NCBI GenBank assembly: GCA_964373575.1 | Contig: CAYJVB010000001.1 | Span: 8,262 to 72,261 of the forward strand | DNA from: an uncultured archaeon | GTDB taxonomy: Archaea; Aenigmatarchaeota; Aenigmatarchaeia; CG10238-14 | DNA length: 64,000 bases | Reading direction: 5' to 3' | Part shown: positions 6,648 through 44,914 of the stretch, one piece after another | How the letters are laid out: every line of letters begins with the position of its first letter | Numbering within the stretch: position 1 is the stretch's first letter | Notes under the pieces: generated by a model | Databases searched by the model: none | The model's input: only the letters and a program-made list of their open reading frames with translations | What the model was told of the DNA's origin: nothing | Program-made: the position numbers and the translations under genes

Positions 6648-8717
6648 TTAACAACTCATTCCTTCTTGTCTTAAACTAAACGCGTCAAACCACCAATTAT
6701 TTCTATATGGAAATGGTGAGACAACTTCTATGCAAATTTTGTTGGTAGACGATTTTGCTGTTATAGTCCTACTAATTTCATTATATTGACCATATTTAAT
6801 TTGATTTCCGTCCATCGACCCACTGTCATAACCATCATTTGTAAATATACGGATACGACCAGACGCTGGATCAGTAGCATATATTTTGTTTTCATTTTGA
6901 ACATCGTATAGGTCTGGATATACGTTAATTGTAAAATCGTATTGTCCAGGAGTCAACCCAGAAACATCTTGACACATCGTAAACTGGGTTGGGCCCCATT
7001 TGAAAATTTTCAAATTTCTATCATTATCAACATAAAACTGATCATCAACAGTCCCTTTTGCAAGCGTATTTGCTTCTGGGGGTAGATATTCTATAGTATC
7101 AAGATTATTTCCTGTTCCAGGATCTATTGTTTCAATATTTTCATTGTCACTACAAGAAGGTGTCTGACCACATGTTAAAGTCCAATCACCCGGCATATTA
7201 ATACTCGTGCCTGTTTGTGCATATGAACCACCGAAACTAGGGTTAGTCAACATGTTAGGACATTTTGGAATAGTAGTTGAAGTCGTTGTTGTAGTTGGTT
7301 TTGGTATAGGCACACCTAATTCCTTAACGCACCATCTACTTCCAGTATTTGGCGTAGGCATGGGAACACCAGATTGATCTTTACAATTACAATCAGTGCA
7401 TTCCCAAAGTATCGGCACATCTTCGCACTCCCTAATACCAGTAATAGGATCAATATTACATACTGTTTTCCATTTTATTGGTGTCCAAACACAATCATTT
7501 ATGTCCATTATAGCAGAATTTTCAGGGCAATTTTTCTTTTTAACATCTATTGTGGCATATACGGAAAATTCTAATTCATCATGATCTTTTGTAGAAAGTA
7601 AATGTTTTTTATCTATACAAGTGAATGTTGCCTCCATTGCACCTCTAGTTTCTTTCCAAAATTTACAAACTTTACCATTACAAAAATCTTCATTTGTCCT
7701 TTGACCTTTCGGTGGCGTCCAACTAAAAGCCTCTTGTAATTTTTCTTCAGAAACACTCCCAATGACTGATTTTCTGTTCCCGTTTGAATCCAATTTAATG
7801 CCTCCACCACACAATGGCCCTGTTGTTCCAAGTTCGCATCTATTACAAAACGGTGGATTTTCCCATGTTTGCACTTCATCACTTCCGGCACACTCTTCTG
7901 TTTCAGTATAATTACAAGCAAATCCGCCACTACAAGTTATCCTTGAACTCGTTGGAAATCCCCCATCATCAAAACCCCTTTGTAAATCCTTCACAGCTAC
8001 TTGTGTGGCATGTTCAACACATGTTTGGAAAGTCGGACAGTGATCAATGCTGGGACAATCACAAATTTTCTCTAGGCAAGTCGCCACTTCATGTTTCAAA
8101 ACATTTCTATTCGCCCATTCACTATATTGCCTGTACATGAGCCAATATCTCACCGGACTTACTTCCTCATAAACATCATTATCAGATTTTGCATTTCCAT
8201 CTTCCCCGATTACTTCAATATTGCTCCCATAAGAGCCAATATTATAGCTAATATCATTTAATCCACTATCAACGCTGCTCTGACTAACATCATAATCAAC
8301 GCAAGCATATTTGGAAACACCATACCTCAGTATATCTCTTTGATTTGCCACATTCAGATTGACAATGTATCTATTAAGATAATCAATTGTATCTTTTGAA
8401 AGATGATATCTTACTTGATCAACAGGTGGAATTTTCGGATCAGTACAGATCCAATTTCTCTCTTGTGGTATACCCAATACCCCACCAAGCTTTCCAGTAT
8501 CTCTCAATGCATTATGACTTGAGAATATCAATGCCACCCTGGAGAAACCCTTCATATAATCAGTCTCCTTGTAAACAAGCTGTTGCTTGATTTGTTCGGT
8601 TAGTCTCTTGCCTGTAGAAAGATTAGTGAATGACGATGAAGCCCAAATAATAAGAAACATTGTAATCAAACTAACTATTACCATAAGACTTGTTTGTGCC
8701 TTGATTTTCATCACCAT
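6648..8717 (-). CDS. Large secreted or membrane-anchored Cys-rich protein (689 aa) of unknown function. It is the first gene of the surface island.
   Basis: N-terminal TM/signal-anchor (MVMKIKAQTSLMVIVSLITMFLIIWASSSF). More than 40 Cys. A poly-Thr linker (TTTTTSTT). No catalytic motif recognised. Confidence 0.5.
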   Translation of the reverse strand: MVMKIKAQTSLMVIVSLITMFLIIWASSSFTNLSTGKRLTEQIKQQLVYKETDYMKGFSRVALIFSSHNALRDTGKLGGVLGIPQERNWICTDPKIPPVDQVRYHLSKDTIDYLNRYIVNLNVANQRDILRYGVSKYACVDYDVSQSSVDSGLNDISYNIGSYGSNIEVIGEDGNAKSDNDVYEEVSPVRYWLMYRQYSEWANRNVLKHEVATCLEKICDCPSIDHCPTFQTCVEHATQVAVKDLQRGFDDGGFPTSSRITCSGGFACNYTETEECAGSDEVQTWENPPFCNRCELGTTGPLCGGGIKLDSNGNRKSVIGSVSEEKLQEAFSWTPPKGQRTNEDFCNGKVCKFWKETRGAMEATFTCIDKKHLLSTKDHDELEFSVYATIDVKKKNCPENSAIMDINDCVWTPIKWKTVCNIDPITGIRECEDVPILWECTDCNCKDQSGVPMPTPNTGSRWCVKELGVPIPKPTTTTTSTTIPKCPNMLTNPSFGGSYAQTGTSINMPGDWTLTCGQTPSCSDNENIETIDPGTGNNLDTIEYLPPEANTLAKGTVDDQFYVDNDRNLKIFKWGPTQFTMCQDVSGLTPGQYDFTINVYPDLYDVQNENKIYATDPASGRIRIFTNDGYDSGSMDGNQIKYGQYNEISRTITAKSSTNKICIEVVSPFPYRNNWWFDAFSLRQEGMSC

Positions 8718-9181
8718 GTATACAATTTTCCTAGAGTGAATTGACCGTCATCACTTGGAATAGGTATTATTATAGTGCTGGCCCTAACCCTTCCATTTAT
8801 TGGAATATCTTGACCCCATTCAAACCCCACGGATTGTACAGTGACATGCCATTTACCAACACCAAAGTTTGTGTCAAAATATTCATAAGTTAATTTTGAT
8901 ACATTCACTCCAAAATCCCCAAATCCATAATTGACAGTTCTTTCTTTCAATAAAACAGCATCACCCAGCATTTGCATAGTGTTTCTTCTTGCTGGCGGAA
9001 CCTTTTTGTAATAATAATCAATCAATGCCGTGTTCGCTCGATCATTCTGGTAAGTGTCAACGAAAAGTTCCTCAATATCCTTTTTGTTTGACGATATGAA
9101 ATACATCGAAATAGCTAGAATTATGACTGAAGTTGCAACCAACAAAAATATTTCCAGAATCTCTTTTGTCTGACCTTTCAT
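8711..9181 (-). CDS. Pilin-like protein with a class III-type N-terminus
   Basis: MKG|QTKEILEIFLLVATSVIILAI has a basic residue, Gly, then a hydrophobic helix, like archaeal prepilin signal peptides. A ~120-aa globular domain follows. Confidence 0.45.
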   Translation of the reverse strand: MKGQTKEILEIFLLVATSVIILAISMYFISSNKKDIEELFVDTYQNDRANTALIDYYYKKVPPARRNTMQMLGDAVLLKERTVNYGFGDFGVNVSKLTYEYFDTNFGVGKWHVTVQSVGFEWGQDIPINGRVRASTIIIPIPSDDGQFTLGKLYTW

Positions 9182-9185
9182 AAAA

Positions 9186-11180
9186 TCACTGTGTAACTAA
9201 AATCTTTTCCCCAGCATTTCTGATATTAAAAATATAACTTCCAGCAGCTTTAACATCTTCAAACTGAATGTCTTTCGTGCAAGAGAGTTTTCTGCAAGAC
9301 GTTGTACCATCATTATAAAACATACATAATTTTTTGTCATCAACATTAGGGCTTTTTGTTACTTTAATCGTTACAGCATCGCAGACTGGCTTGGAGGGGT
9401 TCAGATTAGTCTGTTCAGAATCGATCTTAACATCTCTATCTTGTGATATTGTGTAAGATGTTGTTGCTTCGCATTTTATGGATGCAGGAATACCTATGCA
9501 TGAAGCCCCATCCTTTTCTCCACTAAATTTAATATCATAAGTTCCCGGTTTCTGCGGAGATCCTTCCCACTCCCATACCGAAAAATCAGGACTTCCTGAA
9601 ACAACATTAGGATTAGGGTCGACTATTGTTGTTCCTCCATATGTGTTCAGCAAAACACAAGTATAACCGAAAGATGATTCAACCCTAAACCTTACTCTAT
9701 TATTTCCTATGGAATAAACAGGATAGTGCAGGTTGATTTGATATTGTGAATCAGTTTCAGTCTCACAACTTTCATCTATTTTTCCACTTAATTCTTCTAG
9801 TTCCCCATCAGTCATTTTTATTTGCATTATAGCCGGAAAATATCTCGATTCATCTATTTTTATTGCAACAGGATATCTTGCTGTAACCTGATTTCTCAAA
9901 GCATTATCTTTCGACGCCTCTTCTTGGCCAAACGACCACACCTCTTTTTTAGCATCAGGGTTCTGGAAAAACAAAGATTCTAGCGCTATTGGAGATAGAA
10001 TTGTTCCATGCGTATTTAGGAGCAATAAATCAAACTTCTTTATATCCTCCAAATTTGTTTGCCCGATAAAAAGCCAATCCGAATCAACTTTTATACCAAT
10101 CGGTTGAACATTAACAACAGTCGGGTTTCCATACCCGCCATTATTATGTTTAACAGCAGGACATCCATCATTAGCGCATTTCTCCATCATCATAGCCCAC
10201 AAACAATCAGCATCATAAGGATCAATTATATCCATTATATATCCAATTCTCACAGTATCAGTCTTTCTTTTTTCCGCAGTATATTTTATTACATTCAGTC
10301 CAAACGTAATATCTTCAAAATCAGTATAAGTAAGCCCTCTGCTAGGGCATGCTGTTGGATTACTGCACCAATTATTTGCCTTTTCTATCCACTGTTCTAT
10401 GCTCTCAGTTTTGTAAAATCTGAAACACTGCTGCGGTGTACATCCCCTTCCGGCAGTGGGATCATTTATACCACAAGAAATATCCTGACCTGTAGCGATG
10501 AATGCACCCTTGCCCACAATATGACTATCTTCTGTGTATGCAGCTGTTGTCCTTCCGCTTGTTGTATCAATTAAAATATCTCTCCACGATCCACCAATAG
10601 GTACAACAGAAGCGGATTCACTATGACAATCACCTAAATTGTTTAACGTGTCAATGCCATTTGTAAATGTTTCATCAACCGATTCTTCATTAACATTTGT
10701 CAAATAAGGCGTAGTGTTTTCATAAACAAAAGGTATAAAGAATTCTGGATCAACATCTATCCCTCTATCCCCATCACTCCAAAGCACACCTCCGCTAAAA
10801 ACATAATTCTTTAACTTGTCAAGTTCCTGAGATGTTTCGATATCAACTTTGTATCCAAAACTATAATCTCTAGCACAGCTTGGCTCTATATTAGAATATT
10901 TACTTTTGAATTCATCTAATTTTTTCTTGTCCAAAATCCTATGCGTTGCAAGTTCACCCTCACTTCCTGAGACTCTACCAATTTCATCATAAGCCAAACA
11001 ACTTTTAGAACCAGATAAAACTTCTAAAGTGTTTATCGCCTTGTTGTTTAGCCTTTGTTCTGCAGACTCTTCAGCTGTAATGACATTCAGTGAAAAAAGC
11101 CTGTTGACAGAAATTCCAATTATTAATAGCGTCAATATAAGAAAAACCCCTTTGATTAGAAATTGGGAGATACCTTTCAT
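9186..11180 (-). CDS. Large secreted protein (664 aa) with a class III/pilin-like N-terminus; function unknown
   Basis: MKG|ISQFLIKGVFLILTLLIIGISV at the N-terminus. Cys-rich. Sits within the contiguous minus-strand array. Confidence 0.45.
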   Translation of the reverse strand: MKGISQFLIKGVFLILTLLIIGISVNRLFSLNVITAEESAEQRLNNKAINTLEVLSGSKSCLAYDEIGRVSGSEGELATHRILDKKKLDEFKSKYSNIEPSCARDYSFGYKVDIETSQELDKLKNYVFSGGVLWSDGDRGIDVDPEFFIPFVYENTTPYLTNVNEESVDETFTNGIDTLNNLGDCHSESASVVPIGGSWRDILIDTTSGRTTAAYTEDSHIVGKGAFIATGQDISCGINDPTAGRGCTPQQCFRFYKTESIEQWIEKANNWCSNPTACPSRGLTYTDFEDITFGLNVIKYTAEKRKTDTVRIGYIMDIIDPYDADCLWAMMMEKCANDGCPAVKHNNGGYGNPTVVNVQPIGIKVDSDWLFIGQTNLEDIKKFDLLLLNTHGTILSPIALESLFFQNPDAKKEVWSFGQEEASKDNALRNQVTARYPVAIKIDESRYFPAIMQIKMTDGELEELSGKIDESCETETDSQYQINLHYPVYSIGNNRVRFRVESSFGYTCVLLNTYGGTTIVDPNPNVVSGSPDFSVWEWEGSPQKPGTYDIKFSGEKDGASCIGIPASIKCEATTSYTISQDRDVKIDSEQTNLNPSKPVCDAVTIKVTKSPNVDDKKLCMFYNDGTTSCRKLSCTKDIQFEDVKAAGSYIFNIRNAGEKILVTQ

Positions 11181-11294: not shown

Positions 11295-13784
11295 TCAGGG
11301 TAAAGGATAGTCAGTGGCAATACTAACAACAGAAGCTAATTCAGTGGAATCTACATGATCCTTTGAAGAAAATCTATTCATTATTGATAATATTCCATTA
11401 AGGTTCCTGTCCAACTCCACAGATGAGTGATCTTGAAATTCTATTTCTATACCTGCAATACCAACTGAATCAAGATAATCAATTGCATCTCCCGTTACTG
11501 GATAACCTGCAGAATAAGAAGGTCGATTACCACAATATCCAGCAAATATCATGCCATTTGGAGCAACACTACTATGATAAAAAATTACACCTTTGACATT
11601 ATTTGAAATAAGGAAATCACGCACAGCCCGCGTTTCAGGTTCTGAAAATGGGTTGCTCCCACCACTAACTATATTGTCTTGCCAATAGGCTGTCTCATCC
11701 CAATTACAGTCCCAGTTTCTATTTAAATCAACATTGTTAGCATTAAGTCTTCTAGATAGGTATTCGTTAAGTGTTAGTCCTGGGGCCCAAATACCCGAAG
11801 AATAACCATCTGGATTCATATTTGGAATTATGAAAAGAGTTATATCATCTGGTATTTGTTGAGGATTTGATTCAAAATACGATACCACATTTGATGCTAT
11901 TTCAATGCCATTGTGTTCATAGCCACCATGAATTCCGCCAACAACAAGTAGTTTAGTATTCCCATGACCAAATTTAAAAACTTCTATTTCCCTTCCTTCT
12001 ACAGATTTTCCTATTATGAATTTATTTGAAAACTCTTCAGAACATAAAAATTCAGGTTTGACATTTTCTCCATTTACTTTCAATTCAATGTGAACATGCG
12101 TTCCTTCACCTAAATTAAACAATGTACCCACCTGTGTTCCTGAAGGGACATTTTTCACGTTACCTTCACCCCGATTTAAATGACTAAGCCAAATTTCATA
12201 ATTATTACCTTCGTCATCAAAGCCTTTGTAAATTCTCAAATAACCCCACATTGGATTTAAATCATTAGGAACACCAAGTTCTGCTCCAGTCCACGACCAT
12301 GTAATAGTTTTGCCATTAATAGAAGGGAGAAAAACAGGTGCACCTGGCCCCGTACTTGATACATCTATTGCATACCCATATGTTTGACTAAGTTTCCATC
12401 CAGCTCTTTTTTTATGGCATACATTAATAGTCCCATCAGGATCTATAGAATCTAATGGACCGGTAGCACCACCAATATTATACGAACATCTACCTGCAGC
12501 GCTAGCAGATCCAGACCAGTAAACATTACTTCCATGACCTCCTTTACATTTAGGGTAATTACTGTTATACGATCCACATGTGATAGTAGGCGATTTAACG
12601 AGACATGTTCCTTGAAGACTGGAAGTTGTTGTCGTTGTACAACGTGTTTCTTTTTGACATTGAGGCCAAACAGGATAATACTGTCCAGCCTTGATATTGA
12701 CATAAGTCATAACTACAGCAGCTTCGCACTGGTAACAATCATATCCCTGGCTTTCACAGTATGGATCACCTGTAATACAGACATCATATTTTCTAGCACC
12801 TATGGTGAGAGAATCTAAATTACCATATACGTCCCAATTCGTGCTACCTGTATCTTTGACAGCTTCAAATATTAGTGCAGCTCCTCCATTGTATGCAGCC
12901 AATGCAGATTTAATGTAGTTGTCAGTTCCGTGTTGCTTAAAATTATAGCCAAAAGACGCGTAAGTGTCTAACGAACTAAATTTATTTTTTAAAACTCTTA
13001 TACCACAACGGAAATTTTTGACTGCAACAGCGCTAATTTCCTCGTAAGTCCCAATATCATTACACGATGATTCCGCCGTACTTCTTGTAACCTGCATAAG
13101 GCCGCCTCTTTGCAAAATATAATCGGCTTCATTCCACCCGGTTTCCGTTCCGATAACAGATGCTACTAGATATACCGCATTTTCTACACTACCCGTGTAC
13201 TGTTGCAAGTTTTCCACAATCACAGCTTCTTTTATCTGATTGTAATATTTGTTGAATCCGTCAATGCATTTTTGATTTCCAACATGGGAAAGGCATATAT
13301 TAGCAGGACAAGAAACTAATTTTTCTTCACAAACCTGAGGAAGTGTTGTGGTTGTAGATGTCGTTGTCGTAGTTAATTTAACACCACCACATCCAATATT
13401 ATTTTCTGGCTTAATGTCAAGTTTTTGTTCTTCTTTTCTGACAATTATTTTATCAGAATCTTCAAAGCACACATCACTTATCTTATTACCTTCTATGAAA
13501 AATGATACCGACTTTCCAGTAGTCTTGTCTTGTACCGAAACTATATTGTCCGAAACACGGAATACATATTTTTTTACCAAAGGACCATAACTTAATGAAA
13601 CATCATTGGTTGAAGCAACAACCCTATAAATTGTGGTTTCTATGTCAGAAGAAAATTCTGCTAAAGGCTGATCTTGGGACGATTGACTCTCCTTGAAAAA
13701 AATTGGTCTCAACAAAAATAATGCTATTCCCACTGCTATCAGTATTCCAACAGTCAAAATAACTTCTGATACATCTCCTTTCAT
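11295..13784 (-). CDS. Pilin-like N-terminus fused to a three-domain murein hydrolase: lytic transglycosylase (SLT), M23 peptidase and M14 zinc carboxypeptidase
   Basis: N-terminus MKG|DVSEVILTVGILIAVGIALFLL. SLT motif ETGWNE...GGLMQV at ~aa 195-330. Poly-Thr linkers. M23 motif GEGTHVHIEL at ~aa 560. M14 motifs HGGYEHNG, IIPNMNPDGY and DLNRNWDCNWDE at ~aa 600-829. Confidence 0.65.
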   Translation of the reverse strand: MKGDVSEVILTVGILIAVGIALFLLRPIFFKESQSSQDQPLAEFSSDIETTIYRVVASTNDVSLSYGPLVKKYVFRVSDNIVSVQDKTTGKSVSFFIEGNKISDVCFEDSDKIIVRKEEQKLDIKPENNIGCGGVKLTTTTTSTTTTLPQVCEEKLVSCPANICLSHVGNQKCIDGFNKYYNQIKEAVIVENLQQYTGSVENAVYLVASVIGTETGWNEADYILQRGGLMQVTRSTAESSCNDIGTYEEISAVAVKNFRCGIRVLKNKFSSLDTYASFGYNFKQHGTDNYIKSALAAYNGGAALIFEAVKDTGSTNWDVYGNLDSLTIGARKYDVCITGDPYCESQGYDCYQCEAAVVMTYVNIKAGQYYPVWPQCQKETRCTTTTTSSLQGTCLVKSPTITCGSYNSNYPKCKGGHGSNVYWSGSASAAGRCSYNIGGATGPLDSIDPDGTINVCHKKRAGWKLSQTYGYAIDVSSTGPGAPVFLPSINGKTITWSWTGAELGVPNDLNPMWGYLRIYKGFDDEGNNYEIWLSHLNRGEGNVKNVPSGTQVGTLFNLGEGTHVHIELKVNGENVKPEFLCSEEFSNKFIIGKSVEGREIEVFKFGHGNTKLLVVGGIHGGYEHNGIEIASNVVSYFESNPQQIPDDITLFIIPNMNPDGYSSGIWAPGLTLNEYLSRRLNANNVDLNRNWDCNWDETAYWQDNIVSGGSNPFSEPETRAVRDFLISNNVKGVIFYHSSVAPNGMIFAGYCGNRPSYSAGYPVTGDAIDYLDSVGIAGIEIEFQDHSSVELDRNLNGILSIMNRFSSKDHVDSTELASVVSIATDYPLP

Positions 13785-13787: not shown

Positions 13788-15269
13788 TTAACACGCCAAT
13801 CCATTCATATATGAAACTAGAGGACCATTATTTCCTGCATCTCCAGTTAAATCCGGATAAATTTCAAATGAACCCCAACCAAACTGCCCATAATGAAATA
13901 TAGCTGCGCCAACAACATAGCTATCTTCCTTCAACTTGGAATCATACCATTTAAGGTCCTCAAGATATGAGCTCGCGTCAGTATGAGCCCTCCAACCACA
14001 ATTATCTTCACAACCTCCAGAATCAATTCCAGTTTCAGTTATTACCAAAGGAATTTCTAAATTATTTGGTTGCAAATATTGTCTGTAAACTTTTCTATAT
14101 CTCAGTGTAAGCCATCCAGTGTCTCCATCCAAATTACATTGCATTGAAGGTGAACAATATTCATGTAAGCTAAGATATCCACCATTTTGTTTTGCAGCCT
14201 CTAATGCAGGCTTAAATTCAGACCATAAAGCCAAATCAGGGTTACCAGCTGAGAACGACCCAATACACGCCTTTCTACTTATACTGTTCAGCAATTTTAT
14301 TCTTTCAACCTCAAAAGAACTCATCCACTGCATTTCTTGAGCTGTATGACCTGGAACAGGTTCATTATATCCTTCCCAACAATCTACACTATTAGTAGAC
14401 TCAATAGTACCTCTATTTCTATTAAACCAATCTCTAGCCCTTTGTGCAGCATCTCCATCAGTTGGCTGTTGTCCAGCGGATTCAACAATTCTTCCAACAA
14501 TAAATGTGCATGGTGACGTCTGTTTTATTTCCTCAGCCTTCCCATAATCGCTATTAAGTTTAACAACAGATGGTTTTGTTGAATCAACAAATTCCATCAC
14601 ACCAGATTTTTGAAATTGTGTCTGAATTCCAAGCTTACTGCGACACGCTAAATTCAAATCACAAGTTCTTGGAGGCATTGTCGTTGTACTTCCAGGCAAT
14701 GTAGTCGTCGTTTCCTCATCCCCACCATAATTGTCAGTAGGTACATGAATAGGTGGTGGCGGGGGTTTAGACAATTCCAAGTTTACAGCATTACTAGTTC
14801 TCTTGAAAGTAACCTCATACTCCTTCACCAACGGCCTTCCAAGTATCTTGTTCACCGCAATCTGAAAATCATTATAATCCTCTAGTGTTCCCATATGCGG
14901 CAACCTAGTCCTGCATCTCAGCTTACTGCATCTATTAAACTGCTCCGACTTAAACTGGAAGCATAGATAATCTCCCTCACTTAACTTATCACTCTTAATG
15001 AGATCGCTAACAGTCGGCAATACATCATCAGGTTTGTCAGTTGTATAAAACACACGTACTTGACTTGGTATCAATAAATCAAAGGTCAAAAAATTTCCCG
15101 GCTCTTGAGAGCATACAGAATCTAAATCTTCGTTTATATTGGAAAATTGCTCAAGAAAAGTTTGTTTTTGAGATTCAATGACAAACGATGCTATTAACTG
15201 ATAACCTATTGAAAAAACCATTAATCCTAATACAATCCCACCAACAGCTAGTAAAATAGTGTCAGCCAT
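13788..15269 (-). CDS. Membrane-anchored, pilin-like N-domain fused through a Thr/Pro linker to a clan GH-A (GH5-like) glycoside hydrolase
   Basis: N-terminus MADTILLAVGGIVLGLMVFSIGY. Linker TTTTLPGSTTTMPP. The catalytic-type motifs WEGYNEP (acid/base NEP) and LVITETGIDS (nucleophile TE.G) are typical of GH5/clan A. Confidence 0.5.
   Translation of the reverse strand: MADTILLAVGGIVLGLMVFSIGYQLIASFVIESQKQTFLEQFSNINEDLDSVCSQEPGNFLTFDLLIPSQVRVFYTTDKPDDVLPTVSDLIKSDKLSEGDYLCFQFKSEQFNRCSKLRCRTRLPHMGTLEDYNDFQIAVNKILGRPLVKEYEVTFKRTSNAVNLELSKPPPPPIHVPTDNYGGDEETTTTLPGSTTTMPPRTCDLNLACRSKLGIQTQFQKSGVMEFVDSTKPSVVKLNSDYGKAEEIKQTSPCTFIVGRIVESAGQQPTDGDAAQRARDWFNRNRGTIESTNSVDCWEGYNEPVPGHTAQEMQWMSSFEVERIKLLNSISRKACIGSFSAGNPDLALWSEFKPALEAAKQNGGYLSLHEYCSPSMQCNLDGDTGWLTLRYRKVYRQYLQPNNLEIPLVITETGIDSGGCEDNCGWRAHTDASSYLEDLKWYDSKLKEDSYVVGAAIFHYGQFGWGSFEIYPDLTGDAGNNGPLVSYMNGLAC
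14811..14982. repeat. Copy 1 of a ~171-bp perfect direct repeat. Copy 2 is at 15342..15512.
   Basis: Compared base by base: acctcatactccttcaccaacggcc ... agataatctccctcact is identical in both copies. The flanks diverge. Confidence 0.85.
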
Positions 15270-15293: not shown

Positions 15294-15800
15294 TTATTTT
15301 TTAAAATCAATATTTATTCCGTTGACAGTCCTGGTAAACCTCACCTCATACTCCTTCACCAACGGCCTTCCAAGTATCTTGTTCACCGCAATCTGAAAAT
15401 CATTATAATCCTCTAGTGTTCCCATATGCGGCAACCTAGTCCTGCATCTCAGCTTACTGCATCTATTAAACTGCTCCGACTTAAACTGGAAGCATAGATA
15501 ATCTCCCTCACTCAATTTGTTATTATCTATCAGTTCATCGACATTCAGTAATATTTGATCAGGATTATCGGTAGTGTAAAGAACCCTGACTTGGTTCGAT
15601 ATTCTTATATTTGAAAGATGCGAATTCCCTGGTTCATTTTGGCATACACTTTCTATTTCAGCATTTATTGTATTGATCTGGTTGAGAAAATCATGTTTCA
15701 TAGCCTGTAAAATATTGTTAGTTAACAAATTATATCCTATGAGAAAAATCATTAACCCTATTATAATTCCACCCGCAGCAAGAATAATCGTCTCTGGCAT
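15294..15800 (-). CDS. Truncated paralog of the N-terminal (pilin-like) domain of the 13788..15269 protein. A 60-aa stretch is identical at protein level and 171 bp are identical at DNA level.
   Basis: MPETIILAAGGIIIGLMIFLIGY..., then the stretch LSEGDYLCFQFKSEQFNRCSKLRCRTRLPHMGTLEDYNDFQIAVNKILGRPLVKEYEV, identical to the stretch in the upstream gene. Confidence 0.45.
   Translation of the reverse strand: MPETIILAAGGIIIGLMIFLIGYNLLTNNILQAMKHDFLNQINTINAEIESVCQNEPGNSHLSNIRISNQVRVLYTTDNPDQILLNVDELIDNNKLSEGDYLCFQFKSEQFNRCSKLRCRTRLPHMGTLEDYNDFQIAVNKILGRPLVKEYEVRFTRTVNGINIDFKK
15342..15512. repeat. Copy 2 of the ~171-bp perfect direct repeat. Copy 1 is at 14811..14982.
   Basis: See copy 1. Confidence 0.85.
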
Positions 15801-20532: not shown

Positions 20533-20610
20533 TCTATCCTGTAACTATTATTATTTTTCCTAAATAAATGTTATTGTTTGTTTGTCCACAGGTTTTCACA
20601 TGTTATCTAG

Positions 20611-20919: not shown

Positions 20920-20950
20920 GTTTAAATACCTACAGATATATGTATTATTT

Positions 20951-33200: not shown

Positions 33201-33239
33201 TTAAGAATAGATTTTTGTGGTTATTTATTTTATCTTGAG

Positions 33240-37642: not shown

Positions 37643-38663
37643 CTAGTTCTGAACCAAGTTTAGTAACTACAAAAGTAAATGGAAATGTGACAAGATCATC
37701 AGTTTTCTTAGGTAATAGAGCAGTTGTTATTTTATATTTGCTATCGCAAAATGTCATCTCCATATCACTATCGCTCGAACAAAATTCTTTTTGTTCCGGA
37801 ACTGGTTTATTTCCACATTTAAAATTGAGTTTAATCAAATAATCTTCTGAATTCGTGCAACCGTCGGGATAGACATCTTTTATTAAAACGCCATCATTCA
37901 GCCCTAAAGGATAAAATTCATTTAATTTTAAATTCATAGTTTTTTCAACATTCTGTTCAATATTTCTATCAGAATAAAAATCAAAAACTATTAATGATTC
38001 ATCAACGTTAGTTACAAAAGTTATAGGAATTGACTCTTCAATGAATTTTTGTTTTATTGCATCATAATAAAATGGGTTTGAATCACCAGATATTAATATA
38101 GTCTCCGACCCTCTTATTTTTACACCTTCTACACCACATTGAGACGGATCACTTCCATACTCATCAGTAACAATATTGTCAGTTACTACTATCGTATTTG
38201 GCTGAAGTAATCCTTTAAACATATTAGATAGAGCCAGATAATCAAGTGCGCCAGCAGTAGACGTTTCAATACATTGATAATTTTCTCCTAAATTGGATTT
38301 TTCAATCCATGAATCCTTATTGTCTAATTGCACGATTATAGGAAACTGAAATCCACAAATCCTATCACTACCAATAAAATTAATTATTTCAGGATTGCAA
38401 TAATTGCTACATCTAAAATCAGAAGCGTCATCTTTTATATTTTTTACTTCATCACTATCACACCCATAATAACATCTGGCCATAACACACTGAGCTGCTA
38501 GTTCTGCAACACTCGTTCCCTGAAAGCATTTAAATGGGTCTTCTTTAACACAGGGATTATTTCCTAAAATTGATAAAAAAGCAACTAAAGCAAGAATTAC
38601 AAAAACAGCAACTAGAAAATACATAACTAACTTGCTTGTACCTATATCAGAATTTCCTTTCAT
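37611..38663 (-). CDS. Membrane-anchored/secreted Cys-rich protein (350 aa)
   Basis: MKGNSDIGTSKLVMYFLVAVFVILALVAFLSILG N-terminal anchor and about 16 Cys. Its ATG overlaps the stop of the upstream micro-ORF (ATGA). Confidence 0.4.
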   Translation of the reverse strand: MKGNSDIGTSKLVMYFLVAVFVILALVAFLSILGNNPCVKEDPFKCFQGTSVAELAAQCVMARCYYGCDSDEVKNIKDDASDFRCSNYCNPEIINFIGSDRICGFQFPIIVQLDNKDSWIEKSNLGENYQCIETSTAGALDYLALSNMFKGLLQPNTIVVTDNIVTDEYGSDPSQCGVEGVKIRGSETILISGDSNPFYYDAIKQKFIEESIPITFVTNVDESLIVFDFYSDRNIEQNVEKTMNLKLNEFYPLGLNDGVLIKDVYPDGCTNSEDYLIKLNFKCGNKPVPEQKEFCSSDSDMEMTFCDSKYKITTALLPKKTDDLVTFPFTFVVTKLGSELVETFRGGLRE

Positions 38664-39150: not shown

Positions 39151-41196
39151 CTAGACACCAATATCTGAAATCAAGCGTCCTAGAACAAAGAATATAATCA
39201 ATACAGTAGCTGTAAATATCAATGCACCTCTCATCAAGCTTGTAGCTATAGAATATTGAATTTCTATATTGTCATCTCCCTTTTCAATTCTAACCGAAAA
39301 AACGCTAAGAGAAATCAGAACTTCTATCATATAAATACCAACAACTATCACAAAAATTTCTAGCGGCATTATGTTTTCAATCGATAAAGGTAAATTTTTG
39401 ACATCTTCTATAGGAAAAGATTTGAATAAATCGCTAATATAAATCAAAATTCTTACTAATATTCCACCTAGTCCAACAACAGCTCCAGCAGCCAATGGCA
39501 CTAGAACTATTGACATAATCTTCATCGATGAGATAACATCCTCCAAAATATCTTTCAAATTCTGGCTTACAGTTTGAATTCCTTTCAAATAATCCGAAAC
39601 AGCTATCAACGTCGTCGCAGCAATACCCATTCCTTTTGTCGTCGACTCAACAGTTATCCTCATCGTATTCTTAATCAAAGCCGACGGGTATTCATTTATC
39701 AACCCAACATCTTTATTGAACACAGCTTCTTTAAGAGTCAGTCCCATTTGCGATATCCTGTACAACAATTTCTCGAAAAACACATGAATCTTCTCATTCT
39801 TCACCTTTTCAGTAACTTTCTTTAATGAGTTCTCCAATGGCTGTCCCGATCTTAAAACAGTTCCAAGAATGAACATAGCATCCCCAAAATCTCTCTCAAC
39901 ACCCTCAATTTCTTCTTTGATTTTTTTATTTTTGTTGCTTGAAAAGAAAGTGTAAAACACAATAGCAATTATTAAACCCCAAAAAATACCTAACGAAGCA
40001 AACAACTTATCGTCAAGAGTTATACCTTCACTGGGATTAAATAAAGTCACCAATCCAAAACTTGATACCAATAAGAAAAACATTGCAGCAATAGGAACTA
40101 ACGGAATCTCTATCTTATTTTTACCAATAAATATAGCAGCATTCCCCGGTTTTGCAGCTTGAGGATGATTATATATATCGGGAACATAAAATCCATACGG
40201 CCTCTTCTCCAACTGATTTTTCATTAACCACAAAACAAGAAACGGCAGTATCAAATCATATAAACCAACAAGCACATATATCTTTGCCGTCTTCCCCAGA
40301 ACCAGCGTGACAATAGGAAACAAAATCAATGTTATAACAGGCAATAAAATCCCTAGCGCATGTATAGTTGTTATTGGCGCCTTCAACTCTCTAGAATATT
40401 CCTTCATCCTCTCCAAATTCGATTCAAGTATGAGTTTTACAGCATTATCAATAGTTTTATCTCTATTAACAGGTTCTAACAAAGAAGTTGTTAACATATC
40501 TAATGATCTAGTAAACTCTTCATTCTGAACCTTCCACTTATCTCCAAAATCTTGCAACGCCTCCTCAACACTAGAATATCTCCTAGTATGAACATCCCAC
40601 AGAATCTTTCTCAAATCCTTCCCTACAGCCCCAGGTAAATTAACAGCAGCGAACGTAACAGCATTTTCTAAATTAGGCGTATTCCTCAAGCCAATTGCAA
40701 TATACAAAACCGCAAGAACAAGTTCAGATGAAGCCCCCACTCTTACCTTTTTAGAATAGCTATTAGGATACGTCAGCAAGTAATATGAAAATGCAAAACC
40801 AACCATTGATTCCAGCAACAAATACGGTAGTATTTTCCCAAACGTTATTCCAGCTGATAAAATAAAAAACAACCCCGCCGATAGAAACATTGCAATTACT
40901 GTAGCTATCAATCCAAAAACAAAAGTTGAATAAACAGTATAAGGTTCTACATTAAGATTAGAAAAATTCAGTTTAGCATACAAATCTTTTTCTTTCTCAT
41001 CACTTATTTTTATCCTAATTAAATTTCCAGAAAATGCACACAATTTCTCATACCAATTTCTTTTCTCAGATTCTGTTTTGATGTATTCTAAAAAATCCTG
41101 TGACAGTCTTTTCCCAACAACATTGACAAAATCATCGTATAACTTGTCTAATTCTCTCTTCATCCTAACCACGTATTTGCCTTCTAAGCCAGTCAT
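39151..41196 (-). CDS. TadC/FlaJ/GspF-like membrane platform protein (paralog 2), immediately downstream of the ATPase
   Basis: 681 aa, the same length and domain order as the 24300..26345 protein. It overlaps the ATPase gene by 32 nt. Confidence 0.6.
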   Translation of the reverse strand: MTGLEGKYVVRMKRELDKLYDDFVNVVGKRLSQDFLEYIKTESEKRNWYEKLCAFSGNLIRIKISDEKEKDLYAKLNFSNLNVEPYTVYSTFVFGLIATVIAMFLSAGLFFILSAGITFGKILPYLLLESMVGFAFSYYLLTYPNSYSKKVRVGASSELVLAVLYIAIGLRNTPNLENAVTFAAVNLPGAVGKDLRKILWDVHTRRYSSVEEALQDFGDKWKVQNEEFTRSLDMLTTSLLEPVNRDKTIDNAVKLILESNLERMKEYSRELKAPITTIHALGILLPVITLILFPIVTLVLGKTAKIYVLVGLYDLILPFLVLWLMKNQLEKRPYGFYVPDIYNHPQAAKPGNAAIFIGKNKIEIPLVPIAAMFFLLVSSFGLVTLFNPSEGITLDDKLFASLGIFWGLIIAIVFYTFFSSNKNKKIKEEIEGVERDFGDAMFILGTVLRSGQPLENSLKKVTEKVKNEKIHVFFEKLLYRISQMGLTLKEAVFNKDVGLINEYPSALIKNTMRITVESTTKGMGIAATTLIAVSDYLKGIQTVSQNLKDILEDVISSMKIMSIVLVPLAAGAVVGLGGILVRILIYISDLFKSFPIEDVKNLPLSIENIMPLEIFVIVVGIYMIEVLISLSVFSVRIEKGDDNIEIQYSIATSLMRGALIFTATVLIIFFVLGRLISDIGV

Positions 41197-44100
41197 CCCA
41201 TCTATTGAAAATTTCTTCTGGATTCAAAACGCCATAATCCCTTTTTACATCATCCGAAATGAGGTGAAACATTTCGTTGCTCAATGAAACCCACTCAGCT
41301 TCTAATATATCCTTTCTATCAAGCCTGTTAGCATAATCCACCATCGTCTGCTTCATCTTTGCCCTCAACTCAATATTATCCCAAACAGCCTCCCAGTTGC
41401 CATGCCAATCTCTAACCCTTTTCGCAATCTCATTAACAACAAGCGATTCTCCATTAAGCAATGTTCCAGTTGGTTTCAACTCATCATCTTTAGCCGAATA
41501 TTCCATCAAAGTAACAAAACCCTTTTCATCCATAGGGTCACTCTTCCAATGTTTCCTCACTTCAGCAACTTCAAGTATTCTTCTATATCTATGCAGGCCA
41601 TCCCCAGATTTTATCATTCCTGAAATAACAATTACGTCAATTGCTTTGAAACTTGTCGCTGTCACACCCAAATCATTTACAACTCTATCAAAAACACCGT
41701 ATGGCGACTCTCCATGTATAGTTCCAGCGACAACATTGGATAACGCACCAATCCTCATCGCCTCAAACAAAGCTCTAGCTTCAGTATTATGCAACAATAT
41801 ACCACCAAACCCACCAACAAAATTTTCACTAGGATTAACTGATAAATCATAAACAAATTCACTCTTTTCTAGCTCTATTTCTTTGATTTCGACTATTTCG
41901 TCAAGGAAGAAATCTCCCCCTGCAAAATTCTTTAGTCTTCCTGACGTTTGACATTCTTTATCATTCACTACTCTCTCCAAATATTTCTTGCTGCATTTTT
42001 CAAAACGGAACAAATGTCTATATTTTCTAGGATATCTAGTAAGATGTTTTTTCAGTTCAATTTTATCGAAATATACCATATTAACCTTTGTGTGTTCCCA
42101 TCCCGCTTCAATCATTACAGGATCATATTTAGTAAAACCAACCTCTTTTAAAAATATTTTGACCATTTTCCTATCTTTAAATTCAACTGTCCATAAAGGT
42201 TTTCTGCTTTTTTTATTTCTTATTTCTTTAATTCTAGCAACTATTCCAAAAACAAGAAGTAGATATAACAGATCCTCAGCAAGCAACTTCGAAGTTGTGT
42301 AATATCTTACTGCATTTCCAGACCTTATAGATTTTGTGAAATTTCCGTCACCGCTATAAAGCCCACGTAAAAATGCCGCTATTTTCTTTCGGTTTAATCC
42401 AAAAATCAGTGGTGGAATTCTTTTATCGCCTGAAGTTCTGCCACATTCCAACTTTGATAAAAATGTTGATAACGGAGATGAGAATAAATGAACTTGAGTT
42501 GATTTACCCCAACCAGTGATCGATCTGAAAGACGGCTTGATATTGAAGGTTTTATTCGAAATATCTACAATTTCTTGAATTATTTCTGGATTAGAATTTG
42601 TTATTACAACACGGCCACCCCTACCTTCAGTCAAATCATAATAACCTTCTGCTACATAATAACCCAAAAATTTACAAAAATCTTCATTAACAGAAATCAC
42701 AGCAGGTATTGGGTTGCCGGTGCCACGGGTTATCATTAATTCTTCAGGTTCATAAAATGTATTTGTAGCCTTCATCAATTGAACAAAATTGTGAACCGGT
42801 ATGTTTGTTTTCTGGGCTCTGAAATAATTATAAATATCACCAGAAGTAACCTTACAGATTTCAGTAGCTTTTTTCCACCCAACTTTTTGAATACTTCTTC
42901 TTACAGCATCTTCAAAATTTTTTAATCTAAATTCCGGTAATATATCAATTAAATTTAGATCATCTATATCATTGAATCCACAAAGCATCTTAGAGGGTAT
43001 AACTACCTGATTACCAGGTTTAAGTTTATCACATTCTATCGCTGCAATTCTAAAATCTTTAGTAGCAGTAAATAAACTATGGTCAGGAGTAACTGTGACC
43101 TTCCTACCAGTTTTTGTTGTTATTTCAATAAGTTTTTTCCTTGGTGGGTGTTTAACAAAGTCTGCTAAGGGCCTTATATTCATTTTCAGATTGAAATCGA
43201 GAGTAGGCACATTGTAATTTTTGATCCCCCTGTTTTCCAAATCTTTTATCTTAACTCTTTTTGTAACATTATTTTCTATCACTAAAACTTCTTGATCCCC
43301 TCTAATAGAACTTCTCACCTCACCAACAATCAAACAAGAATCACCCAATCTCAACGCAGTTCTTAATGCATCATCTGCCGGCAACTCGGATTCAATTCTT
43401 GTAATAACAGATCGCGACTTCATCCTTTCGATATTATATCCTATGTCTCTTAGTTGTGTTATAGGTAATTCAAGCGTGTCCTCTAGGCTAATTACACGAA
43501 ACTTTTTCATCATTTCCAACATAGTCGCTCCTAGCAGTGATGATTTACCACTCGATCTTCCACCTGCAAACAAAATAGTCCTCGAACCGTCAACAAGAAA
43601 ACTCATCAATCCAGCAAACATCGAATTCATATATTTCGTGTTCATAAACAATGGATAAGTCCATGGTCTATCTCTATGCCTTCTCAATGCATATGCCAAT
43701 CCTTCTGGACTTAATGTCCTTGTAATAGCACCAACCCTAGCCCTCCCGCCAGGTACAAACAACTCAGTATCAAGAACAGGATTTGCCTCATCTAACGGTC
43801 TTCCAGAAAGCAGTCTGAACCTCGTAGCCCAACTCTCAGCATCCTCCCTTGTCGGTATTAAATTAGTCTCGCACTCTTCATAATCGTCATGCAATACATA
43901 AACCGGCGTGATCCCTATAGGCGAATTTATGTAAATATCTTGCAACTTGGTATCACTCAGCAACAATTCCAATATCCCAAATCCTGCAGTATATCTAACA
44001 AGTATATTCACCATCTCTTCCAGTTCCTTCGGTGTATATTGATTTTTTGCAGCCATCTGATTAATCATATCCTTTCCAATATTCAGGAAAATTTCCCTCG

Positions 44101-44914
44101 CCCTTTCAGGTTGTGTGAACTCCTTCTCTCCAGGCTTATGTTCAGTCAGCTGTGACCTTGCCGAATTAATAATCGCATACTTGTCATCCGTAAGCTTGAA
44201 CTCAGGTGCAATAAGATGATAAAAATATCTTACCTTATTTGGAACCCTGTAAATCTCAACCTGCAAATTTCCTTGTACATCATATCTCTCAACAAGCCTC
44301 CCACCCTTCGGCGGAAGAAAAGCATACCTCGTCAACATGAAAATAGGTCTTATAAGAGGATTGAATATCTGCCTATAGACATCTCTATTTCCGATAACAT
44401 ATCCATACAAGTTATCCTTGACAAGGCTGATCAGTTTTGTCTTCTCCAACTCTTTGAGTACCGGCTCTAGAACATTCCTCACAAACATCAGATAGTAAGC
44501 CCCATCTTTTGTTGTTTTGACCTTTGAATAATATTGCCTCATCATCCTCCTTATCTTAACATACGCCCCAATGGGATCTCTTTTGACCATCTGTTCCAAA
44601 ACAACCTTGAATTGATTGAGCGGCGCACCTAATATCCTTGCCGCAGCCTGACCTCCAATTTTTGAAAAATCAATTCCTTGTGTAGCGAGTCTATCATAAA
44701 CATCAGCCACTTCTAACAACAGCTTTGTCTGATCATAGTCATATTCATACTCCCTTGTTTCAGCAAGAATAATCCTCTCAACCCTTTTGAGTTGAAGTAT
44801 CTTATCAATAACACTGCCCATTATAATGTCAGAATCTTCTAGATTAGTGCCGTACACACTGTTCATTACATTAACCTTCAGAATACCGTCAATCATTTCA
44901 TGCTCTAATGCCAA
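41165..44914 (-). CDS. Type IV pilus/secretion ATPase (GspE/FlaI/TadA/VirB11 superfamily) containing a large intein
   Basis: Walker A FAGGRSSGKSSLLGAT. Asp/His-box region RLGDSCLIVGEVRS is interrupted and resumes TEARALFEAMRIGALSNVVAGTIHGESP, matching the host motif IIVGEVRG.EA...TGH.G..TTIHA. A long N-terminal domain is typical of archaeal FlaI-like ATPases. Confidence 0.75.
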   Translation of the reverse strand: MALEHEMIDGILKVNVMNSVYGTNLEDSDIIMGSVIDKILQLKRVERIILAETREYEYDYDQTKLLLEVADVYDRLATQGIDFSKIGGQAAARILGAPLNQFKVVLEQMVKRDPIGAYVKIRRMMRQYYSKVKTTKDGAYYLMFVRNVLEPVLKELEKTKLISLVKDNLYGYVIGNRDVYRQIFNPLIRPIFMLTRYAFLPPKGGRLVERYDVQGNLQVEIYRVPNKVRYFYHLIAPEFKLTDDKYAIINSARSQLTEHKPGEKEFTQPERAREIFLNIGKDMINQMAAKNQYTPKELEEMVNILVRYTAGFGILELLLSDTKLQDIYINSPIGITPVYVLHDDYEECETNLIPTREDAESWATRFRLLSGRPLDEANPVLDTELFVPGGRARVGAITRTLSPEGLAYALRRHRDRPWTYPLFMNTKYMNSMFAGLMSFLVDGSRTILFAGGRSSGKSSLLGATMLEMMKKFRVISLEDTLELPITQLRDIGYNIERMKSRSVITRIESELPADDALRTALRLGDSCLIVGEVRSSIRGDQEVLVIENNVTKRVKIKDLENRGIKNYNVPTLDFNLKMNIRPLADFVKHPPRKKLIEITTKTGRKVTVTPDHSLFTATKDFRIAAIECDKLKPGNQVVIPSKMLCGFNDIDDLNLIDILPEFRLKNFEDAVRRSIQKVGWKKATEICKVTSGDIYNYFRAQKTNIPVHNFVQLMKATNTFYEPEELMITRGTGNPIPAVISVNEDFCKFLGYYVAEGYYDLTEGRGGRVVITNSNPEIIQEIVDISNKTFNIKPSFRSITGWGKSTQVHLFSSPLSTFLSKLECGRTSGDKRIPPLIFGLNRKKIAAFLRGLYSGDGNFTKSIRSGNAVRYYTTSKLLAEDLLYLLLVFGIVARIKEIRNKKSRKPLWTVEFKDRKMVKIFLKEVGFTKYDPVMIEAGWEHTKVNMVYFDKIELKKHLTRYPRKYRHLFRFEKCSKKYLERVVNDKECQTSGRLKNFAGGDFFLDEIVEIKEIELEKSEFVYDLSVNPSENFVGGFGGILLHNTEARALFEAMRIGALSNVVAGTIHGESPYGVFDRVVNDLGVTATSFKAIDVIVISGMIKSGDGLHRYRRILEVAEVRKHWKSDPMDEKGFVTLMEYSAKDDELKPTGTLLNGESLVVNEIAKRVRDWHGNWEAVWDNIELRAKMKQTMVDYANRLDRKDILEAEWVSLSNEMFHLISDDVKRDYGVLNPEEIFNRWDDWLRRQIRG
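41786..43309 (-). other. Intein (~508 aa; protein residues ~536-1043) with a LAGLIDADG homing-endonuclease domain, inserted in the Asp-box/His-box region of the ATPase
   Basis: The insert starts with Ser after GEVRS and ends ...GILLHN, followed by extein Thr+1. It has Hint-like blocks and LAGLIDADG motifs (FLGYYVAEGY, LRGLYSGDGNF). Removing it restores the contiguous conserved motif VGEVRS-TEARAL. Confidence 0.6.

Follow-up and report, generated by a model that had tools for sequence, protein, structure and literature searches.

Pilin-like proteins fused to hydrolase domains in a conserved type IV filament locus of Aenigmatarchaeota

Introduction

The subject of this study is a type IV filament (TFF) locus at positions 6648-44914 of a 64-kb window (the whole stretch of DNA analysed, 64,000 nucleotides of contig CAYJVB010000001.1 from an uncultured archaeon), in which pilin-like proteins fused to enzyme domains, murein hydrolases among them, are encoded together with a pilus-assembly machinery. 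Archaeal TFF systems have been classified in a 2026 preprint, where System 1 has one ATPase and two platform genes and includes DPANN archaea, and where binding proteins with class III signals are proposed to functionalise TFF bases, hydrolases and peptidoglycan going unmentioned (10.64898/2026.04.22.720090). Our locus resembles System 1/Epd (the Epd of Methanococcus maripaludis; Thermococcales; DPANN) in its one ATPase, two platforms, many pilins and adhesin-like accessories, and differs in that no hydrolase-bearing pilins or embedded peptidoglycan hydrolase have been described there; no EpdA peptidase was seen in the window. The Sulfolobus bindosome (BasEF) is similar in that non-filament proteins with a pilin-type N-terminus depend on the TFF base for their display, as enzymes stand behind pilin-like modules here. 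Its cargo, however, consists of solute-binding proteins (SBPs) and ATP-binding cassette (ABC) transporters encoded away from the base, whereas our hydrolase cargo is encoded inside the locus, where Pfam detected no SBP or ABC transporter domains.

Murein hydrolases as such are known from archaea. Woesearchaeota and Pacearchaeota possess extracellular SLT proteins, likewise DPANN murein lytic transglycosylases, which have been read as tools against bacterial walls and as evidence for bacterial hosts (PMC8204110, PMC9723730); these differ from ours in being giant (up to 3000 aa), in belonging to other phyla and in having no reported link to pili or class III signals. A survey of 3,706 archaeal genomes, covering Sec/Tat signals and contractile injection systems rather than pili, found murein hydrolases to be prominent in GTDB Nanoarchaeota and two haloarchaeal M23 enzymes (Woldo/Danwoldo of Halogranum) to kill bacteria (PMC12352652). 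In that survey archaeal M23-type enzymes act on bacterial murein, and domain shuffling is seen as it is here, but the Woldo/Danwoldo type bears Sec/Tat signals or none, has wall-binding domains and is patchy and often plasmid-borne (PMC12352652), in contrast to the class III-type signals, the conserved chromosomal site and the absence of a canonical wall-binding domain from our window (LysM occurs in one relative). Outside archaea, episymbionts from the Candidate Phyla Radiation (CPR)/Patescibacteria (Saccharibacteria pili, Vampirococcus hydrolases) also combine an ultrasmall, reduced cell with type IV pili and murein hydrolases (PMC9894109; PMC12206443; PMC8080830), although with bacterial machinery, murein of their own and hydrolases not reported as pilin fusions or in a pilus locus. 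Phage tape-measure and lysin proteins (M15/M23/SLT) bring a wall-cutting domain to the contact point by way of a filament or tube, but they are viral structures with no ATPase/platform assembly, and the likeness is limited to the catalytic domain.

For the phylum itself, the main Aenigmarchaeota genomics paper reported FlaI/FlaJ-like genes and S-layers, left peptidoglycan unmentioned and discounted bacterial hosts (PMC8407114). Searching the full-text literature on DPANN/Aenigmarchaeota pili, pilins, murein and transglycosylases (open-access papers and bioRxiv), we found no account of the present arrangement. The novelty asserted by an initial reading of the window (hereafter the sequence-only reading) therefore holds for the link between hydrolases and a pilus locus and for its presence in Aenigmatarchaeota, and does not extend to DPANN hydrolases or the bacterial-host idea, which are published, the latter for Woesearchaeota/Pacearchaeota as well as for archaea at large (PMC8204110, PMC9723730, PMC12352652). 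New here is the pilin-enzyme architecture in a pilus locus; the TFF/bindosome concept, DPANN murein hydrolases and the bacterial-host hypothesis are known.

Results and discussion

Pilin-like proteins with exchangeable enzyme domains

Evaluating N-termini by a strict class III rule (K/R-G/A in the first 20 residues with a hydrophobic stretch directly after), we found such N-termini in 13 of the 32 region ORFs (open reading frames) and in 0 of 41 flank ORFs. A further 5 region ORFs have an N-terminal hydrophobic anchor or helix without the KG motif, such that the at least 15 class III proteins of the sequence-only reading become 13 on the strict count and ~18 on a loose one. The K-G pair is nearly invariant over 181 pilin-like N-termini of related loci. 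The proteins in which a pilin-like module is joined to an enzyme, and one stand-alone module, are as follows.

11295-13784, minus strand: 829-aa protein with a pilin-like module (residues 1-124), SLT, a divergent M23-like region and M14 (Pfam)
22865-24319, minus strand: pilin-like module (residues ~1-131), Thr-rich linker and NagZ-like GH3 (Pfam GH3, 122.9 bits)
13788-15269, minus strand: 493-aa protein with a pilin-like module, Pro/Thr linker and predicted clan GH-A (beta/alpha)8 glycosidase domain (AlphaFold2, AF2, with Foldseek)
15294-15800, minus strand: stand-alone 168-aa pilin-like module, 65% identical to residues 17-168 of the 493-aa GH-A protein

In the 829-aa protein, Pfam scored SLT at 25.5 bits (threshold 21.3) and M14 at 85.8 bits, the latter supporting, as a domain match, the M14 peptidase called earlier. 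Two SLT proteins had been claimed for the region, and both Pfam matches (the second in the slot hydrolase described below) are above threshold and possess the catalytic Glu and GLMQ/AYNxG-type motifs, read by eye as GTETGW...GGLMQV...AYNGG and VESGF...GLFQV...GYNGWG. The M14 domain has PDB matches to which its NRNW and third His align, its first motif, HGGYE, being one residue longer than HxxE. In an AF2 model of this protein, residues 5-130 are predicted as a long N-terminal helix and then beta strands (pLDDT ~70), a topology as expected of a pilin. Residues 1-382 (pilin module and SLT) are common to this protein and its nearest orthologs, and only residues 1-124 to it and distant orthologs, whose C-termini are a papain-like C1 domain, a Glyco_hydro_cc barrel or sequence with no Pfam match.

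The GH3 protein has NagZ enzymes as its top PDB relatives and keeps the KHFPG and S-D nucleophile motif; only its residues 1-131 are common with the pilins at the same position in relatives (128-215 aa, without GH3). For the 493-aa protein, there was no Pfam match, and a PDB sequence search gave chance-level matches only. Its C-terminal ~280 residues (210-490), modelled by AF2 from a 43-sequence alignment, reached pLDDT ~95, and Foldseek matched the model to GH2, GH5, GH157, GH158 and GH53 structures (E 2e-7 to 1e-5), with N302-E303-P304 (NEP) and T411-E412-x-G414 (TExG) being invariant. We are confident, from this model, in assigning 13788-15269 to a clan GH-A glycosidase of unclassified family; of the earlier 'GH5-like' label, the clan GH-A barrel and the NEP/TExG motifs stand and GH5 membership is not borne out. 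The nearest ortholog of this protein carries LysM. The wider GH-A-like family (535 matches, homologs P0049-P0166) has no Pfam model, occurs in Chloroflexota and Methanomicrobiales records, is often fused to dockerin or CBM_4_9 domains, and may be an unclassified glycoside hydrolase family. The pilin module of the 493-aa protein is duplicated in the 168-aa protein as a direct repeat of 299 nt at 83% identity (14773-15071 and 15304-15602), and a long run of identical residues (~95-153) in this pair suggests recent gene conversion.

Small pilin-like proteins with M23, SLT or M15_4 also occur in distant Aenigmatarchaeota TFF loci. Several of the pilin-like proteins are modular in sequence: the class III signal and hydrophobic helix are followed by a small globular module, from which a Thr/Pro-rich linker leads to an exchangeable enzyme domain.

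A fixed slot for lineage-variable murein hydrolases

A second setting for hydrolases, which we call the slot, lies on the plus strand between the two platform genes of the locus.

27327-29885, plus strand: slot hydrolase, 852 aa, with M15_4 (Pfam, 50.6 bits) and SLT (27.6 bits)
26443-27330, plus strand: lipoprotein-like slot partner, 295 aa, with an LSGC lipobox-like signal at its N-terminus

The slot hydrolase begins with a Pro/Lys-rich N-terminus and 3 transmembrane (TM) helices, followed by a conserved centre (~145-465) and then M15_4 and SLT. Its M15 domain has the Listeria phage L-Ala-D-Glu peptidase Ply500 as top PDB match, with the SxHxxGxAxD motif and the C-terminal His aligned (SSHSFGTALD...MHFE), which upholds the VanY-like M15 peptidase of the sequence-only reading. 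Identity to Rhizobium phage lysin A and tape-measure proteins is 31-37%; the nearest relatives of the domain are in other Aenigmatarchaeota, which argues for long residence in the phylum and not for recent acquisition. Orthologs of the lipoprotein-like partner adjoin the slot hydrolase in 7 loci. Comparing slot orthologs (L numbers denote related loci), we found the TM helices and the ~300-residue centre to be kept (25-28% identity) and the C-terminal catalytic module to vary by lineage.

M23: Pfam match in L006, L008, L009, L015 and L017; local-model match only in L010
SLT: Pfam match in L013; local-model match only in L014
NlpC/P60: L106
M15_4 and SLT: the window

By these assignments, the slot holds four unrelated murein-hydrolase families on one scaffold at a fixed position. 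Some orthologs have a cytoplasmic N-terminal zinc-ribbon (L090:446-2599 by Pfam; L102:8079-9506 by a CxxC...CxxC pattern seen by eye), and that of L090 has no recognisable C-terminal catalytic domain; the scaffold may do more than carry hydrolases.

In bacteria, specialised lytic transglycosylases open the envelope for pili, flagella and secretion systems, and machine loci commonly encode dedicated SLT, M23 or NlpC/P60 enzymes. By this precedent the hydrolases could serve to open the archaeon's own envelope for filament passage, an explanation that gains from the membrane anchoring and the fixed place of the slot hydrolase between both platform genes and from the proposal that pilus insertion needs S-layer rearrangement (10.64898/2026.04.22.720090). 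We nevertheless consider self-remodelling quite improbable. Murein-like walls in archaea are found only in Methanobacteria/Methanopyri (PMC12352652) and S-layer genes are reported for the Aenigmatarchaeota phylum (PMC8407114), such that no murein-type wall is expected in this archaeon and the target is most plausibly a bacterial wall. Several hydrolases are moreover fused to exported pilin modules and vary by lineage, as would suit a changing target outside the cell better than an unchanging structure of its own. Pseudomurein is cut by other enzymes, the pseudomurein endoisopeptidases being another family. With the families found being of murein type, we ruled out pseudomurein enzymes.

Conservation of the locus and its link to hydrolases

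The genes of the machinery to which these proteins are adjacent, and five conserved neighbours, are the following.

41165-44914, minus strand: FlaI/TadA-type secretion ATPase, 1249 aa (Pfam T2SSE, Intein_splicing, LAGLIDADG_3)
~41786-43309, minus strand: intein of the ATPase, 508 aa, with LAGLIDADG endonuclease, after Walker B (NCBIfam intein N- and C-terminal models)
39151-41196, minus strand: platform protein 1, FlaJ/TadC-like, 681 aa (T2SSF 26.5 bits, above threshold)
24300-26345, minus strand: platform protein 2, 681 aa (T2SSF 21 bits, under threshold)
44964-47814, plus strand: five genes conserved beside the ATPase, with homologs at the same place in 16-30 Aenigmatarchaeota loci

To ~50% platform identity, relatives keep a first-half gene order that starts with Trm5/Dph5/DUF357, 3-5 small opposite-strand genes, the ATPase and platform 1, and continues through ~8 pilin-like genes and the opposite-strand membrane-anchored hydrolase with its lipoprotein to platform 2. 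The second half, followed in metagenome loci around platform 2, runs from platform 2 and a short pilin through p176, p136, p148, p303, LamG (one locus) and p168 to 1-2 pilin-enzyme fusions and then p664, p156 and p689, the distal end lying next to UppS and the geranylgeranyl-reductase family protein (GGR) in the nearest relatives, as it does in the window.

Applying local M23, SLT and M15 models within 10 kb downstream (pilin side) of the ATPase-platform pair, we detected hydrolases at 12/26 Aenigmatarchaeota loci versus 0/36 loci of other platform paralogs (Fisher p=4.5e-6, an optimistic value that is indicative rather than rigorous because the compared loci are mutually related and not phylogenetically independent). 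Relative to the platform gene, every one of the hydrolase ORFs (13/13) was on the pilin side. These counts indicate that the hydrolase-pilus association is not a one-genome coincidence, and with several hydrolases being themselves pilin-like fusions, the gene link drawn by the sequence-only reading is supported.

Domain exchange on conserved scaffolds bears on the idea that the enzymes are antibacterial weapons for bacteriocin-like competition, with the pilus genes as a mere export route and neither feeding nor symbiosis involved. Rapid catalytic-domain swapping does resemble an arms race, and secreted archaeal M23 hydrolases are known to kill bacteria (PMC12352652), but the locus is chromosomal, phylum-wide and syntenic rather than patchy or plasmid-borne like the described weaponised hydrolases, its enzymes appear anchored and not freely released, and DPANN archaea are thought to depend nutritionally on partners (PMC8204110), and we regard a role as weapons as highly improbable.

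The same synteny addresses whether the region, earlier called a surface 'island', is acquired DNA. In favour of a horizontally acquired island or integrated element whose genes are associated by accident are the homing endonuclease of the intein, a LAGLIDADG ORF standing free at the edge, the HTH_17 gene (excisionase-like) and the lineage-specific insert of 4 kb. Against this, GC content is low across the 64-kb window (0.30-0.41) and does not shift at the region, which matches its flanks, no integrase was found at the locus, and the Dph5/Trm5 and UppS/GGR flanks and the internal order are shared to ~50% protein identity, relatives having identical housekeeping neighbours. An accidental association is thus contradicted by synteny and extremely improbable, and we ruled out an acquired island or provirus by synteny and composition. 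The region is a conserved TFF locus of Aenigmatarchaeota, native to the phylum. Its extent of 6648-44914 stands as the pilus region, with the conserved module reaching further to ~47814; the single-strand layout likewise stands for most ORFs (nearly all are on the minus strand), the M15 and SLT protein, its lipoprotein neighbour and the HTH_17 gene being on the plus strand.

Assembly machinery

The ATPase scored 27.3 bits for T2SSE, above the Pfam threshold, with weak NCBIfam FlaI/TadA matches under the equivalog cut-offs (FlaI 91 vs cut-off 550), and possesses a Walker A-like GGRSSGKS and a conserved LIVGEVR directly ahead of the intein. Removing residues 536-1043 leaves a 741-aa extein that aligns without gaps to intein-less orthologs over the LIVGEVRS / (T)EA(R/V)ALFEAMR junction, in agreement with the intein-carrying ATPase claimed before. 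The intein is patchy, being present in some lineages (L008/L011, L021, L043; ATPases of ~1250-1290 aa) and absent in most (741-775 aa), as expected for a homing element; longer ATPase-like ORFs are seen in L026 (1692 aa) and L062 (1043 aa).

Platform 1 is 75% identical to its counterpart in the metagenome-assembled genome (MAG) RIFCSPHIGHO2_02_FULL_35_12, and nearly all its homologs are named Candidatus Aenigmatarchaeota. The two platform proteins align over their whole length as paralogs at 29% identity, and a hydropathy scan shows 8 hydrophobic segments in either one, so that the pair of TadC/FlaJ-like platforms is retained, the first by its T2SSF match and the second as its paralog; orthologs of platform 2 occur in L006, L009, L013-L015 and L089-L127. 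The five genes at 44964-47814, whose products are a coiled-coil protein of 133 aa, another protein of 230 aa and three 4-TM paralogs, lack Pfam matches above threshold and are possible accessory components of the machinery. An archaellum was considered and rejected, as no locus ORF had an archaellin or accessory (FlaH, FlaF/G, FlaC-E/X) Pfam match. A distinct platform paralog stands beside the cysteinyl-tRNA synthetase gene (CysRS) on the opposite strand in many related loci, usually without an adjoining ATPase (e.g. L024, L028, L032-L035, L037, L040, L051); in the window, CysRS is at 52796-54151 with no platform gene beside it.

Other pilin-like and secreted proteins

The remaining pilin-like and secreted proteins of the locus, including those of the lineage-specific insert, are these.

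37611-38663, minus strand: pilin-like protein, 350 aa, with MKG and a hydrophobic helix (class III rule) and 14 Cys
29882-33542, minus strand: pilin-like cluster 1, six ORFs of 100-302 aa, 5/6 with N-termini of the strict class III type
19621-22781, minus strand: pilin-like cluster 2, proteins of 176, 136, 148 and 303 aa (by their N-termini)
15825-19459, minus strand: 1010-aa secreted Cys/Thr-rich protein (Pfam) and Thr-repeat 202-aa anchored protein
6648-11180, minus strand: three pilin-like proteins of 664, 156 and 689 aa (class III rule), closing the locus
34143-34529, plus strand: tandem HTH_17 (excisionase-like) protein (Pfam HTH_17)
34558-35166, minus strand: 202-aa protein (p202) with signal peptide and C-terminal anchor
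35159-37642, minus strand: 827-aa Cys-rich secreted protein with one HEIGH motif and two dockerin/EF-like DxNxDGxxD motifs

Orthologs of the 350-aa protein come after platform 1 in relatives. Cluster 1 (33240-33542, 32511-33200, 32069-32527, 31240-32076, 30783-31259, 29882-30790) keeps its order in L006-L017, L092, L093 and L106, and cluster 2 (22251-22781, 21840-22250, 21392-21838, 19621-20532) is retained in relatives as p176-p136-p148-p303 downstream of platform 2. The closing order p664-p156-p689 recurs beside UppS/GGR in L001-L005 and, in L090, L102, L112 and L114, at the distal end; Pfam gave no match for these three, and at E<=5 it returned nothing usable for ten unassigned locus proteins.

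The 1010-aa protein has Laminin_G_3 and Stig1-like domains (Pfam) and an ortholog at the matching position in L122, and is, on these domains, a likely adhesin or lectin. Within the Thr-rich, C-terminally anchored 202-aa protein listed with it, a perfect 21-nt tandem repeat (15987-16061, 3.6 copies) encodes TTTLQAT units; similar Thr runs make up the linkers of the fused enzymes, and assembly breaks in relatives may be due to them. The segment 33600-37642, comprising the HTH_17 gene, p202 and the 827-aa protein, has no counterpart in the loci of relatives, save one 223-aa match (43% identity) to p202 in L102.

Host genome and flanks

The flanks contain diphthine synthase (Dph5) and Dph2 (NCBIfam, equivalog-level), together with a Trm5/Taw-type methyltransferase, the GGR, an ADP-forming acetyl-CoA synthetase alpha subunit and a structural RNA.

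54808-55080, minus strand: archaeal signal recognition particle (SRP) RNA (Rfam 121.6 bits vs gathering threshold 96.5)

Dph5, Dph2 and the archaeal SRP RNA agree with the archaeal host assumed at the outset and rule out a CPR bacterium; the nearest relatives of the locus proteins carry the names Candidatus Aenigmatarchaeota/Aenigmarchaeota, and the genome is confirmed as archaeal and, by these relatives, assigned to the Aenigmatarchaeota (DPANN). Also in the flanks are a 107-nt tRNA at 2304-2410 (plus strand; Rfam 61.4 bits, missed by ARAGORN) that is probably an intron-containing archaeal tRNA, and a free-standing LAGLIDADG_3 ORF at 4373-5278 (minus strand, 301 aa) that separates UppS from the pilus-locus end, at a position without a gene in relatives L002-L005; with that of the ATPase intein, this makes two homing-endonuclease domains. 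Outside the locus, adjoining genes at 102-527 and 686-2188 (minus strand) encode secreted or anchored proteins that have a common ~98-aa domain (35% identity), the larger with a weak Ig-like match.

Cargo range and the question of scavenging

To describe the range of cargo, we compared 78 class III-type proteins of >=280 aa near Aenigmatarchaeota platform genes with Pfam.

M23: 4 proteins of 78
SLT: 3 of 78
C1: 3 of 78
ConA-like 3keto-disac_hyd: 3 of 78
VWA: 2 of 78
M28: 1 of 78
M15_4: 1 of 78
GDSL lipase: 1 of 78
alpha/beta-hydrolase: 1 of 78
Glyco_hydro_cc: 1 of 78
transglutaminase-like: 1 of 78

Murein hydrolases are the largest enzyme class among these proteins, alongside others. Of the murein-specific arsenal proposed by the sequence-only reading, most murein-hydrolase calls hold and the exclusiveness does not, since the scaffolds of relatives also carry proteases, other glycosidases and lipase/esterase.

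This range bears on scavenging, in which the displayed enzymes, with no particular bacterium as host, would degrade free peptidoglycan, protein and polysaccharide debris (necromass) near the cell as a source of amino sugars and amino acids. The bacterial murein-recycling pathway is established, and the enzyme set here (lytic transglycosylase, NagZ-like, MpaA-like M14, M15) resembles that series displayed outside the cell. The general proteases, M28, lipase/esterase and other glycosidases on relatives' pilin scaffolds point the same way, as does the bindosome precedent of nutrient capture, and Strock et al. keep the option open. There is, however, no muropeptide or sugar transporter in or beside the locus, large adhesin-like proteins and many minor pilins fit surface contact, and four endo-acting wall-cleaving families at the slot suit intact sacculi. 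We rate scavenging as a sole explanation unlikely, though as a serious contender. Attack on live bacteria and scavenging of debris are not mutually exclusive readings, and of the bacterial-wall attack first proposed for this region, the archaeal host, the mostly murein-directed hydrolases and the pilus link stand, while live attack and debris scavenging are inseparable here.

A proposed enzyme-displaying machine

Our preferred interpretation, which we hold with slightly better than even confidence, is that a filament, or a machine like the bindosome, displays hydrolases towards bacterial envelopes, be it for attack or for scavenging, and would open the murein wall on contact. A prepilin (class III) peptidase encoded elsewhere would remove the short leader by cutting after K-G, and the single ATPase, with either platform protein, would pull the hydrophobic helices from the membrane to build a filament, or a short bindosome-like pseudopilus, reaching past the S-layer. 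Those subunits that bear enzymes would be minor ones or form the tip, and adhesion would fall to the LamG/Cys-rich proteins and the large pilin-like ones. On contact with a bacterium, the displayed enzymes would cut murein glycan strands and peptide stems or cross-links, and the opened wall would yield amino sugars and amino acids for which the reduced archaeon has no synthesis of its own. Going by family, SLT would act on glycan strands, M15, M23, NlpC/P60 and M14 on stems and cross-links, and GH3 on N-acetylglucosamine (GlcNAc) termini, which would together amount to a full dismantling of murein.

Several observations weigh against such a machine or blur its target. The M23 claimed for the 829-aa protein is a sub-threshold match (16.6 bits vs threshold 28.7) to the C-terminal half only (SHL...THVH), in which the canonical HxxxD His is absent; bona fide M23 domains do occur in relatives. 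The GH3 protein has N-S-D where NagZ has the D-S-H Asp-His dyad and scores 113.8 bits in the NagZ NCBIfam model against a cut-off of 207, such that the GH3 domain and the nearness to NagZ in PDB stand, the NagZ-specific dyad is not conserved, and 22865-24319 reads as a putative NagZ-type GH3. The 827-aa HEIGH protein, previously presented as a Ca-binding HExxH protease, found no match in Pfam, NCBIfam or the PDB, not even with the limit relaxed to E<=5 or 10, and its motifs by themselves do not sustain that assignment. The same or similar scaffolds in relatives bear papain-like protease, M28, lipase, esterase and adhesion domains, from which it follows that murein is not the sole target. The 10-kb range yielded no hydrolase at 14/26 ATPase-platform loci, detection being of limited sensitivity, and among the 59 ORFs downstream of platform genes at hydrolase-negative loci the 25/57 Pfam families listed include no hydrolase, although a weak SLT could escape; the relatedness of the compared loci, noted with the p-value above, counts here as well. 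No class III signal (prepilin) peptidase was found among the scanned window ORFs or fetched related loci. The gene for this peptidase is often located away from the pilus locus, and its absence from 64 kb has no excluding force. Finally, the partners inferred for the phylum in its main genomic study were archaea and not bacteria (PMC8407114).

A more specific version of the preferred interpretation is an 'enzymatic pilus', in which pilins with swappable wall-, protein- and lipid-degrading domains, together with the anchored murein hydrolase, would serve for attaching to and feeding on living bacteria. We put this forward tentatively, as a possibility that we think more doubtful than the displaying machine itself. 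If true, it would give parasitism or predation of archaea on bacteria its first defined molecular apparatus, and it would reverse the published inference of solely archaeal partners for the phylum. Whether any DPANN archaea live on bacteria has hitherto been argued from isolated murein-hydrolase genes, and the locus offers a concrete, conserved and testable unit, namely defined pilin-enzyme fusions and a fixed hydrolase slot in the pilus locus of a whole phylum. It could be used to predict host range from hydrolase specificity and to mine genomes for proteins that combine a class III signal with an enzyme. The bindosome idea would be widened from nutrient binding to enzyme display, and the loci would also be a reservoir of modular antibacterial enzymes. 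Even if scavenging or self-remodelling holds, the arrangement would still represent a means, hitherto undescribed, by which archaeal type IV filaments are functionalised.

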